A stretch of 5,325 bases of DNA. Source: a virus (taxonomy: Duplodnaviria; Heunggongvirae; Uroviricota; Caudoviricetes). The notes beneath the pieces were generated by a model. It was not told the origin of the DNA and ran no database searches. It saw only the letters and a program-made list of their open reading frames with translations. The stretch lies in the IMG/VR virus record IMGVR_UViG_3300005715_000008; one strand, 5' to 3'. This document shows, in pieces, positions 2,851 through 5,325 of the stretch (positions within the stretch are counted from its first letter, which is position 1; each line of letters starts with the position of its first letter). A program made the translations under genes and the position numbers.

Positions 2851-3017
2851 TTGACCCAAATCGAAGTTACGAACAAGAAAGCGTTGAGCGAGCTTTAACG
2901 TGCGCTAACTGCGGTCAGAAGCTGCATGTGCTGGAAGTTCACGTGTGTGAGCACTGCTGCGCAGAGCTGATGAGCGATCCGAATAGCTCAATGTACGAGG
3001 AAGAAGACGATGGCTAA
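2847..3017 (+). CDS. ninF: NinF-like small Cys-rich (zinc-ribbon-like) protein
   Basis: GTG at 2847 overlapping the ninE stop (GTGA) with AGGA RBS upstream. Product [38 protein letters not shown]... has a CxxC...CxxCC arrangement and matches my recollection of lambda NinF. Alternative start ATG 2805 (track) would overlap ninE by 46 nt. Confidence 0.65.
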
Positions 3018-3621
3018 ACCAGCGCGAAGACGATGTAAAAACAATGAATGTCGGGAATGGTTTCACCCTGCATTCGCTAATCAGTGGTGGTGCTCTCCAG
3101 AGTGTGGAACAAAGATAGCACTCGAACGACGAAGTAAAGAACGCGAAAAAGCGGAAAAAGCAGCAGAGAAGAAACGACGACGAGAGGATCAGAAACAGAA
3201 AGATAAACTTAAGATTCGAAAACTCGCCTTAAAGCCCCGCAGTTACTGGATTAAACAAGCCCAACAAGCCGTAAACGCCTTCATCAGAGAAAGAGACCGC
3301 GACTTACCATGTATCTCGTGCGGAACGCTCACGTCTGCTCAGTGGGATGCTGGACATTACCGGACAACTGCTGCGGCACCTCAACTCCGATTTGATGAAC
3401 GCAATATTCACAAGCAATGCGTGGTGTGCAACCAGCATAAAAGCGGAAATCTCGTTCCGTATCGCGTCGAACTGATTAATCGCATCGGGCAGGAAGCAGT
3501 AGACGAAATCGAATCAAACCATAACCGCCATCGCTGGACTATCGAAGAGTGCAAGGCGATCAAGGCAGAGTACCAACAGAAACTCAAAGACCTGCGAAAT
3601 AGCAGAAGTGAGGCCGCATGA
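3010..3621 (+). CDS. ninG: NinG / Rap (recombination-associated structure-specific endonuclease)
   Basis: 203-aa ORF; ATG 3010 overlaps the ninF stop. N-terminal Cys cluster (CKNNEC...CSPEC), Lys/Glu-rich linker, and C-terminal Cys/His cluster (CISCG...H...CVVCNQHK) as in lambda NinG; length close to lambda NinG. Confidence 0.85.
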
Positions 3622-3824
3622 CGTTCTCAGTAAAAACCATTCCAGACATGCTCGTTGAAGCATACGGAAACCAGACAGAAGTAGCACGCAGACTGAAATG
3701 TAGTCGCGGTACGGTCAGAAAATACGTTGATGATAAAGACGGGAAAATGCACGCCATCGTCAACGACGTTCTCATGGTTCATCGCGGATGGAGTGAAAGA
3801 GATGCGCTATTACGAAAGAATTGA
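3618..3824 (+). CDS. ninH: NinH (small Fis-like HTH DNA-binding protein)
   Basis: 68-aa ORF; ATG 3618 overlaps the ninG stop (ATGA). Helix-turn-helix-like segment [18 protein letters not shown]; length and position match lambda NinH; 3' end overlaps the ninI start. Confidence 0.75.
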
Positions 3825-4473
3825 TGGCAGCAAATACCGAAATATTTGGGTAGTTGGCGATCTGCACGGATGCTACACGAACCTGATGAAAAAACTGGAG
3901 ACGATAGGATTCGACACCAAAAAAGACCTGCTTATCTCGGTTGGCGATTTGGTTGATCGCGGTACAGAGAACGTCGAATGCCTGGAATTAATCACATTCC
4001 CCTGGTTCAGAGCTGTACGTGGAAACCATGAGCAAATGATGATTGATGGCTTATCAGAGCGCGGAAACGTCAATCACTGGCTGCTTAATGGCGGTGGCTG
4101 GTTCTTTAATCTCGATTACGACAAAGAAATTCTGGCTAAAGCTCTTGCCCATAAAGCAGGTGAACTTCCGTTAATCATCGAACTGGTGAGCAAAGGTAAA
4201 AAATATGTCATCTGCCACGCCGATTATCCTTGTGATAAATACGAGTTTGGAAAGCCAGTTGATCATCAGCAGGTAATCTGGAACCGCGAACGAATCAGCA
4301 ACTCACAAGACGGGATCGTGAAAGAAATCAAAGGCGCGGACACGTTCATCTTTGGTCATACGCCAGCAGTGAAACCACTCAAGTTTTCCAACCAGATGTA
4401 TATCGATACCGGCGCAGTGTTCTGCGGAAACCTCACATTGATTCAGGTACAGGGAGAAGGCGCGTGGGCATAA
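3802..4473 (+). CDS. ninI: NinI serine/threonine protein phosphatase (lambda PPase type, calcineurin-like metallophosphatase)
   Basis: From ATG 3802 (RBS GGAG upstream) the product begins [29 protein letters not shown]... and carries the metallophosphatase motifs GDLHG, GDLVDRG, GNHE; it matches my recollection of lambda protein phosphatase almost residue for residue. The track ORF start at 3727 is an upstream in-frame extension inside ninH. Confidence 0.9.
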
Positions 4474-4982
4474 GAGAACTAAACCTCACCAAAGAACAGC
4501 ATGAGTGGCTGAATGGCTGGCTTGAACTGTGGGGCGCATGGGTTTATTCAGGTCGTCTGGAAAAGCGCATGAGCAGCGTAATAGCGAAGTTCATGGAGAG
4601 CGTAGAGCCGGGAAGAGTTATGACAAGGCCAATGTGCAATGATGATGATGGAATGTTGATTTCTCAGGTCGTCGATTCCGTCATGTACATTGACAAGAAA
4701 GCCTTTGGCATCCTCCTCAGCTACTACGCTCATGGTTCATCTAAGCGAGCAATTGCATCCTACTATCACGCGGCTGCAAAGCCACGCAAGATGTGTGGAC
4801 GTGGTGGCGAGGGATGGAGAAAACCTTCACTGGCAACCTGTAGAAACGAAATTGACGACATCCTGAAAGCGTCATTATTTGTTTTATACCAGCCAATGCA
4901 AAATGCTTTCAAAATGCGTAAACGTGTTGAGAAAGTTAAGCATGTTGCTGTTAAAAGCCTTGACATGCAATTAGCCATTTAG
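4464..4982 (+). CDS. Q: Late-gene antitermination protein Q (non-lambda Q family, possibly Q21/Q82-like)
   Basis: 172-aa ORF directly after ninI (GTG 4464 overlapping the ninI stop region, RBS GGGAGAAGG upstream) and directly upstream of a consensus-like promoter plus terminator, which is the canonical position of Q. Sequence does not resemble lambda Q as I recall it; family assignment is from memory and synteny only. Confidence 0.6.
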
Positions 4983-4989
4983 CCATAAT
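4960..4989 (+). promoter_or_regulatory. Late promoter pR'-like (sigma70), probably including the Q-utilisation (qut) region
   Basis: -35 TTGACA (4960-4965), 18-bp spacer, -10 CATAAT (4984-4989); overlaps the Q stop codon (4980-4982). Predicted transcript start around 4996-4998. Confidence 0.55.
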
Positions 4990-4999
4990 TAGAGGGTAA

Positions 5000-5045
5000 G
5001 CTGCCGTTAGTGACTCTTAAGTTGCAACGGTGGCTTTTTTTTATT
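5000..5045 (+). terminator. Rho-independent terminator, tR'-like
   Basis: Imperfect stem g5000-t5008 paired with a5026-c5034 (9 pairs including two G-U), followed by TTTTTTTTATTT (5035-5046). Lies about 40-50 nt downstream of the predicted pR' start, the expected position of the terminator that Q overrides. Confidence 0.5.
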
Positions 5046-5046
5046 T

Positions 5047-5121
5047 GGGTCAGTCGTATAAAGGTCATTACGGAAGGCTGTTAACCTTCTTATCGTGGTT
5101 CGAGTCCACGCTGTCCCGCCA
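5047..5121 (+). tRNA. tRNA gene, anticodon GUU (Asn-like), 75 nt with encoded CCA
   Basis: Manual cloverleaf: acceptor 5047-5053 / 5111-5117 (one U-U mismatch at pair 4-69), U8, D-arm with A14 and G18G19, anticodon stem GAAGG/CCTTC with loop CTGTTAA (U33, anticodon GTT), 4-nt variable loop, T-arm CGTGG-TTCGAGT-CCACG, discriminator G, CCA 5119-5121. Confidence 0.6.
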
Positions 5122-5126
5122 AACAT

Positions 5127-5202
5127 GCTGGTTTAGCTCCAATGGTAGAGCAGTCGCCTTGTAAGCGAATGGGTAGCGGTTCAAGTCCGTTAACCAGCAC
5201 CA
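5127..5202 (+). tRNA. tRNA gene, anticodon UGU (Thr), 76 nt with encoded CCA
   Basis: Manual cloverleaf: acceptor GCTGGTT (5127-5133) / AACCAGC (5192-5198) perfectly paired, D-arm GCTC-CAATGGTA-GAGC, anticodon stem 5153-5157 / 5165-5169 (top pair non-Watson-Crick) with loop CTTGTAA (anticodon TGT), T-arm AGCGG-TTCAAGT-CCGTT, discriminator A, CCA 5200-5202. Confidence 0.7.
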
Positions 5203-5319
5203 TAACTGAGCCGTAGCCACTGGCTATTCTGAATTCATCAGTGATAGTTATGCTGCGGCCTTCTTTTTTCCCCTTCCCAATATAAGAACTACGCAATCCG
5301 TTACTGGCGGAGGCGTTGC

Positions 5320-5325
5320 TATGAA
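5320..5325 (+). CDS. Start of an unidentified downstream gene (only ATG plus 3 nt in window)
   Basis: ATG at 5320 preceded by GGAGG (5309-5313) at appropriate spacing; + strand, downstream of the Q/pR'/tRNA block. Identity cannot be determined from 6 nt. Confidence 0.3.

Follow-up and report, generated by a model that had tools for sequence, protein, structure and literature searches.

The 5,325-nucleotide stretch of the caudoviral IMG/VR record IMGVR_UViG_3300005715_000008 analysed here (hereafter the window) carries, in and immediately after its gene for the Q antiterminator, a compact unit which is very probably the late-control cassette of a lambdoid or P22-like prophage of the phage 21 type, composed of Q itself, the late promoter pR' with an embedded Q-binding element (QBE), a sigma-dependent pause element (SDPE) and the terminator tR'. 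The unit as such is already known and annotated (phage 21/Sf6 type), and what is added to the existing annotation is only the covariation between the QBE and particular Q residues, together with the cassette-like mosaic of the region. Q, the elements of the unit, the divergent cassette and the genes that follow are all encoded on the plus (+) strand.

Over its whole 5.3 kb, the window represents the nin/late-control region of a prophage of the lambdoid or P22-like kind. Its positions 4464–5264 share 99% DNA identity with Shigella phage Sf6, the stretch of 862 bases that begins with Q and runs to the end of the window matches phage 21 with 89% identity over the full length, and sequence related to the same Q-to-end region is present in 936 out of 5,426 complete E. 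coli genomes. Conservation of the unit was followed in a survey of 41 enterobacterial loci of the Q21 family (one genome per species, Q identity down to ∼50%), in which the QBE register was anchored on the -35 and -10 elements and from which L118 (truncated match) as well as L122 and L123 (frameshifted or fragmentary Q) were left out. The 80 related IMG/VR loci (L003–L082), all of them 98–99% identical, were used for population variation only and not for covariation.

Q protein

The Q gene occupies positions 4464–4982, starts with GTG and encodes 172 amino acids. The preliminary description of this DNA, made from the letters alone, had taken the ORF for Q, and the homology check bore this out: the product matches Pfam family PF06530 (E = 1.3e-25) as well as the Q21 structures 6jnx and 6p18 in the PDB (E = 1.7e-92, 86% identity). 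Three unrelated families of Q are distinguished, namely PF06530 (Q21), PF06323 (Q82) and PF03589 (Q-lambda) (PMC9388147), and in the Pfam search the ORF matched PF06530 and DUF1133 only, with no match to PF03589 or PF06323. Of the likeness to systems of the phage 82/21 type that had been suggested earlier, the phage 21 part is upheld both by the alignment and by the Q family, while the phage 82 part falls with the missing PF06323 match; a phage 82-type Q cassette was rejected on the same ground. A lambda-type cassette was likewise rejected, since there is no PF03589 match and the leader comes to ∼45–47 nt, not ∼194 nt.

Residues 1–94 of the protein are those of Q21 without change, residues 95–162 are identical at 45 of 68 positions (66%), and the C-terminus is 10 residues longer than that of Q21. 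This 10-codon extra tail (4953–4982) is encoded by the -35 element and the QBE. In Q21, residues W26, V27, V39, K42 and S46 touch the dock, zipper, lid and zinc-binding domain of RNA polymerase (PMC6606751), whereas S29 and T54 mark the narrowest point of the so-called nozzle (bioRxiv 10.1101/651190), and all of these residues are conserved in Q of the window. Judged by its sequence, the ORF is a true Q antiterminator.

DUF1133 (PF06576) matches residues 56–150 of Q, in its C-terminal half (E = 2.9e-8), and several database relatives of Q carry the name “DUF1133 family protein”, which indicates that this family of “unknown function” overlaps the Q21-family antiterminators. On the minus strand within Q, a paQ-like antisense unit at 4757–4789, comprising a CII box TTGC-N6-TTGC (4789–4776) and a -10-like TAGGAT (4762–4757), coincides with paQ and the CII site annotated in the phage 21 record.

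Late promoter and pause element

The promoter TTGACA-18 bp-CATAAT, which had been described as overlapping the end of Q, is indeed present. Its -35 element TTGACA (4960–4965) is encoded by the Q codons Leu-Asp-Met, the TAG stop of Q (4980–4982) falls in the spacer, and the -10 element CATAAT is found at 4984–4989, where phage 21 has AACACT. With 11 of 12 consensus positions matched, this is the sole sigma70 match of such quality in the window, and the promoter scan revealed no further promoter-like site from the terminator to position 5325. Homology to the annotated start of phage 21 would place the transcription start at G4996, 7 nt after the -10 element and just before the SDPE. The latter, TAAGCT (4997–5002), is a -10-like sequence at +2 to +7 and is the same in phage 21. 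The layout consisting of a -35 element, a spacer of 17–18 bp with two 8-bp direct repeats, a -10 element and TAnnnT was detected in all 41 surveyed loci, TTGAC of the -35 element being invariant (41/41). It should be noted that neither of the two parts which make the unit Q-responsive, the QBE with its direct repeats in the spacer and the -10-like SDPE, figured in the preliminary description.

Terminator and leader RNA

A hairpin followed by a T8 tract, reported earlier to lie about 40–50 nt downstream of the promoter, was also recovered: the T tract begins 46 nt after the -10 element and 40 nt after the inferred start (+40). The tR' hairpin spans positions A4998 to U5036 (core G5000 to C5034), with 17 pairs, a bulged A5009 and the loop CUUA (5016–5019), and its 5' arm takes in most of the SDPE transcript. 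The T8 tract (5035–5042) is followed by A and then by TTT. A simple terminator scan passed over the hairpin because of the bulged A; folding of positions 4991–5046 retrieved it with a dG of -22 kcal/mol (z = -4.6), a stability reached by none of 200 shuffled sequences. The hairpin sequence is identical to that of phage 21, the terminator is annotated in both phage 21 and Sf6, and across relatives compensatory changes are seen in 6 of 16 hairpin pairs. The 3' ends of the RNA are predicted near +44 to +47, which with the homology-based start corresponds to a leader of ∼45–47 nt. The earlier reading of a very short terminated leader is thus supported by base-for-base alignment with the experimentally characterised pR'/QBE/SDPE/tR' of phage 21 and by the match to the annotated pR'/qut/tR' of Sf6. 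Among the 80 near-identical IMG/VR loci, changes cluster in the discriminator, in the length of the U tract (T6–T8) and at one base of the upstream QBE subsite (AATTAGCC to AATTATCC).

Throughout the Q21 family, a hairpin begins at +3 to +5 and takes in the pause-element transcript. The compact form, in which the U tract comes directly after the hairpin (at +39 or +40), is seen in 16 loci, among them the window, phage 21 and Sf6. In most of the others the hairpin lacks a U tract, and a second, canonical terminator is found at +52 to +114; compactness is therefore a feature of a clade and not a rule of the family. Leaders of the latter kind (+1 to +114) were observed in L090, L093, L095–L099, L101–L106 and L110–L121. 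The leader hairpin may consequently have a second role, for instance in pausing or in stabilising the late mRNA at its 5' end.

A related proposal would add to the function of the unit as a late switch rather than replace it: the ∼45-nt leader or its 5' hairpin could serve as a trans-acting small RNA in lysogens, in the manner of StxS from 933W-type pR', or as a 5' stem-loop which stabilises the late mRNA. Leaders from pR' can become Hfq-binding small RNAs (PMC7547250), and termination alone does not suffice to explain why the +3 to +5 hairpin is kept with compensatory changes even where the U tract is absent and the terminator lies further downstream. However, the 45-nt RNA is nearly all stem, and as its unpaired part consists of just the CUUA loop, two nucleotides at the 5' end and the U tail, it offers no obvious seed region. 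Furthermore, in the Rfam search (E ≤ 1) the two tRNAs of the window were the only matches and no family was assigned to the leader, while the conserved 5' arm may be constrained as DNA, being a pause or scrunching sequence. Such an additional role of the leader seems rather unlikely.

Q-binding element and its predicted recognition

The QBE was placed by means of the phage 21 annotation. In the phage 21 record OL657228 the order of elements is the pR' -35, the QBE ATTGAGCA/AATGAGCA, the -10, the start, the SDPE, the terminator (citing PMID 1704887), tRNA-Asn, tRNA-Thr and the S21 antiholin/pinholin. Aligned with it, the upstream subsite of the window (QBEu) is AATTAGCC at 4969–4976 and the downstream subsite (QBEd) is its direct repeat ATTTAGCC at 4977–4984, which holds the Q stop codon and the last base of which is the first base of the -10 element. 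The register is the same as that of the annotated phage 21 QBE, yet the subsites read TTAGCC, not TGAGCA.

In Q21, bases are read by H95, A124, R127 and R128 in the major groove and by R113 in the minor groove, and the C:G pairs at -21 and -13 of the QBE are needed (PMC6606751). Both C residues are retained in the window, as are R113, A124 and R127, whereas two of the five base-reading residues are changed (H95R and R128N). Hence the sequence marks of Q21's own DNA specificity are not found here, both the subsites and residues 95 and 128 being different.

The same positions covary across the 41 loci. Residue 128 is accompanied by base 4 of the downstream subsite as follows: Arg with G (26/26), Asn with T (14/14) and Lys with T (1/1). 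Residue 95 goes with base 8 of the subsites, Arg being found with C in 20 of 21 cases and His, Tyr or Leu with A in all 20, and Arg at residue 124 accompanies GGAC cores. When reduced to 28 distinct residue/site combinations, the associations give Fisher p-values of 8e-8 for residue 128 and 4e-7 for residue 95, relatedness being uncorrected in both. At least three times the Asn/T pair is met in a background whose closest relative carries Arg/G, namely the window against phage 21 (85% identity), L103 against L101 (82%) and L112 against L110 (85%). We infer that Q of the window recognises TTAGCC subsites by means of Arg95 and Asn128, the counterparts of His95 and Arg128 with which Q21 recognises TGAGCA. 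Its site preference would accordingly differ from that of Q21, and a different specificity class within the same family is predicted.

The identity to phage 21 DNA, measured in 50-nt bins, is 96–100% in the flanks (4464–4713 and 5008–5306) and only 62–82% between them (4714–5007), where the DNA-reading half of Q, the -35 element, the QBE, the -10 element and the discriminator are located. This sharp drop between conserved flanks implies that Q's DNA-reading half makes up one divergent “specificity cassette” together with the docking site. On present evidence the balance tips slightly towards the view that the window carries a natural hetero-specific variant of Q21, with a two-residue code (128 for base 4 and 95 for base 8), in which the DNA-reading half and the QBE would be exchanged together as the cassette 4714–5007 while the nozzle half and the terminator stay constant. 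If this is true, co-resident prophages would possess orthogonal late switches, and synthetic biology would gain a set of orthogonal, processive antiterminators.

Proposed mode of action

The late regulatory region of phage 21 was reportedly described by Guo, Kainz and Roberts in 1991. Structures of the phage 21 late complexes have been determined since (PMC6606751; Yin et al. 2019). In this phage, re-binding of sigma region 2 to an early -10-like element causes the polymerase to pause (PMC6606751), the pause at pR' being located 18 bp downstream of the start (PMC9191641). Two protomers of Q21 bound to the direct-repeat QBE then dock on the paused complex, and an RNA-threaded ring blocks formation of the terminator hairpin (PMC6606751; 10.1101/651190).

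Transferred to the window, the sequence of events would be as follows. When Q is absent, sigma70 RNA polymerase would initiate at about G4996, sigma region 2 would re-bind TAAGCT at +2 to +7 and the polymerase would pause near +18. This position corresponds to A5013 within the 5' arm of the hairpin, while the 3' arm would be made only from +25 (to +41), so that the decision on Q loading would fall before the terminator can fold. Still without Q, the polymerase would resume, pass through the 3' arm and the U tract and release the ∼45–47 nt leader. After induction, AATTAGCC and ATTTAGCC, the direct repeats located between the two promoter hexamers, would be occupied by two Q protomers, which would dock on the polymerase during its pause. 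The upstream protomer would form the ring (“nozzle”) in the RNA exit channel, with the short RNA threaded through it. The nozzle would keep the terminator hairpin from forming beside the polymerase, which would result in read-through to the genes for tRNA-Asn and tRNA-Thr, the S21-like pinholin gene and the remainder of the late operon. In the case of this scheme, the elements, their geometry, homology, conservation and covariation are seen in the present data, and the start, the +18 pause, termination, Q loading and the nozzle are taken from experiments with phage 21.

One must bear in mind that several points weigh against the assignment of the unit to the phage 21 type and against its proposed recognition code. 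The start site, the pause, the efficiency of termination and the dependence on Q are all transferred from phage 21. Each QBE subsite differs at 2 of 6 core positions from the QBE of phage 21, which is the sole one characterised. The spacer measures 18 bp instead of 17 bp. The -10 element is far nearer to the consensus than its phage 21 counterpart (CATAAT vs AACACT), so promoter strength and escape may differ. The last six residues of Q21 fold onto the alpha/beta interface of the polymerase during loading (10.1101/651190), and the C-terminal extension of 10 residues in Q of the window could alter this step. Finally, the covariation counts are not corrected for phylogeny, and one locus (L086, Arg95 with base A) breaks the pattern at residue 95.

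Genes downstream of the unit

The terminator is followed by tRNA-Asn (GTT) at 5047–5121 (Rfam 55.3 bits), annotated in phages 21, Sf6 and SfI, and by tRNA-Thr (TGT) at 5127–5202 (Rfam 61.5 bits), annotated in phages 21 and Sf6, both of which were also detected by ARAGORN. A GGAGG ribosome-binding site (5309–5313) and an ATG then open a gene for an S21-like (pin)holin of class II (5309–5325). It aligns with the S21-71 start of phage 21, and E. coli genomes have it annotated as class II holin/essD. A gene beginning at 5320 had been expected here; the gene exists, its ATG being at 5321. Going by the order of genes, tRNA-Asn would be the first gene of the antiterminated transcript and the pinholin gene the first late protein gene. 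On this reading the tRNAs and the lysis gene would be transcribed only on antitermination by Q, as had been supposed.

An arrangement without any response to Q has to be considered as well, in which the hairpin and T8 tract are a plain terminator of the early rightward operon after Q and TTGACA/CATAAT is a constitutive promoter of the tRNAs. The terminator is situated ∼50 nt past the Q stop, the tRNA genes start 5 nt after the T tract, and polymerases arriving unmodified from upstream are probably halted there too. A tRNA promoter located upstream of the terminator, however, would terminate its own transcripts. Moreover, the direct repeat in the spacer covaries with the DNA-reading residues of Q, the -10-like pause element at +2 to +7 is kept in 41 of 41 loci, and roughly half of the near-identical loci lack tRNAs after the unit: tRNA-Asn comes next in 34 of L003–L082, while in 32 TTTGCACAACAGGTAAGAGCA comes directly, with no tRNA. 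A self-standing tRNA promoter was rejected on the position of the terminator downstream of the promoter, the QBE covariation and the conserved pause element, and an arrangement of this kind is very improbable.

As for mere chance, under which the promoter- and terminator-like sequences would have no function at all, its probability is negligible: at a lax threshold of 9/12 the window does contain fewer promoter-like matches than shuffled sequence (3 vs 6.0), but a match of at least 11/12 is expected only 0.068 times per window (6.6% of 500 dinucleotide shuffles had one), the hairpin is unmatched in 200 shuffles, and the architecture, experimentally shown in phage 21, is kept in 41 species-level loci, so that conservation effectively refutes chance. 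The strongest evidence in this respect is the layout conserved across those loci downstream of Q homologues.

Comparison with other phages

The closest characterised counterpart of the late-control cassette is that of phage 21, with which the window shares the Q family, the order and spacing of elements, TAAGCT at +2 to +7, the hairpin sequence, the T tract at +40 and the succession of tRNA-Asn, tRNA-Thr and S21 pinholin. The two differ in the QBE (ATTGAGCA/AATGAGCA in phage 21, AATTAGCC/ATTTAGCC in the window), the spacer (17 vs 18 bp) and the -10 element. In addition, Q of phage 21 stops 6 nt before the -35 element, while in the window the -35 element and both QBE subsites lie inside or across the coding end of the longer Q.

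Sf6 and its P22-like relatives HK446, SPN9CC and BTP1 have the same QBE, -10 element, SDPE, hairpin and tRNAs. In the Sf6 record AF547987 (gene 59) a putative late promoter, qut and leader terminator are annotated as “similar to phage 21”, this P R'/qut/t R' annotation being based on homology only, and a search of the accessible literature turned up no paper linking Q21, Sf6 and antitermination. Sf6 differs from the window in one discriminator base, in a T6 instead of a T8 tract and in a lambda S-type holin beyond position 5264, where the window has the S21-type pinholin. Position 5264 appears as a recombination boundary, at which the Sf6/P22-like similarity stops and the window then follows phage 21 into the S21-type pinholin.

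Phages encoding Shiga toxin 2 (Stx2) with the “q21” allele (for example Stx2a_WGPS6, 1717 and Nil2) share the Q family and the compact leader and terminator with the window, but have a phage 21-type QBE (GTTGAGCA/AATGAGCA) together with H95 and R128, and retain only ∼24 nt of tRNA-Asn ahead of ileZ-argN-argO-stx2AB. The end of the similarity to Stx2 phages forms another recombination boundary, at position 5070 inside tRNA-Asn. In the locus of one Stx2a phage with a “q21”-type Q (L124; AP012539.1, 780–1100), the QBE is likewise of the phage 21 type and the leader and terminator are unchanged, followed by ∼24 nt of tRNA-Asn, unrelated DNA and then ileZ-argN-argO-stx2AB.

Lambda additionally requires a -35-like element and NusA, and its leader is 194 nt long. 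The logic of the pR' promoters of lambda and 933W is nevertheless the same as in the window, with a constitutive promoter, a sigma-dependent promoter-proximal pause, a Q site between the -35 and -10 elements and a leader terminated in lysogens (PMC6606751, PMC7547250). Lambda is set apart by its unrelated Q family (PF03589), and the ∼45-nt leader of the window is almost wholly terminator hairpin. As to StxS of 933W, a longer precursor is processed to 74 nt (PMC7547250). The system of phage 82 is equivalent in function and genome position and likewise relies on a sigma-dependent pause (PMC9191641, PMC9388147), but it employs the third unrelated Q family (PF06323) and pauses at +25; since Q82 is able to load when the RNA of the complex is already long, a closed nozzle may not be its mode of action (PMC9388147).

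The main value of the late-control cassette described here lies in annotation, as it would place the prophage tRNAs and lysis genes under the control of Q. Its exact anatomy is also of some practical relevance, because Shiga toxin 2 is under the same module in those phages of enterohaemorrhagic E. coli (EHEC) that carry the “q21” allele. Of possibly greater weight are the covariation and the presumed swap of the cassette, both read from sequence, which might inform work on cross-talk among prophages sharing a host and help in designing orthogonal antiterminators.

Other features of the region

Upstream of Q, the window encodes a DnaB-like helicase (98–1297), NinB (2261–2671), NinG (3010–3621), NinH and a NinI-type phosphatase (3802–4473). 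A strong terminator-like hairpin (8 bp, including 6 G-C pairs) with a T run is located at 1323–1356, ∼25 nt 3' of the stop of the DnaB-like gene, which is where tR2-type terminators of lambda lie in the nin region. An HNH endonuclease gene has been inserted into the region that matches Q-to-end in some E. coli prophages (genomes H31, H32 and H43), dividing the match into two parts.

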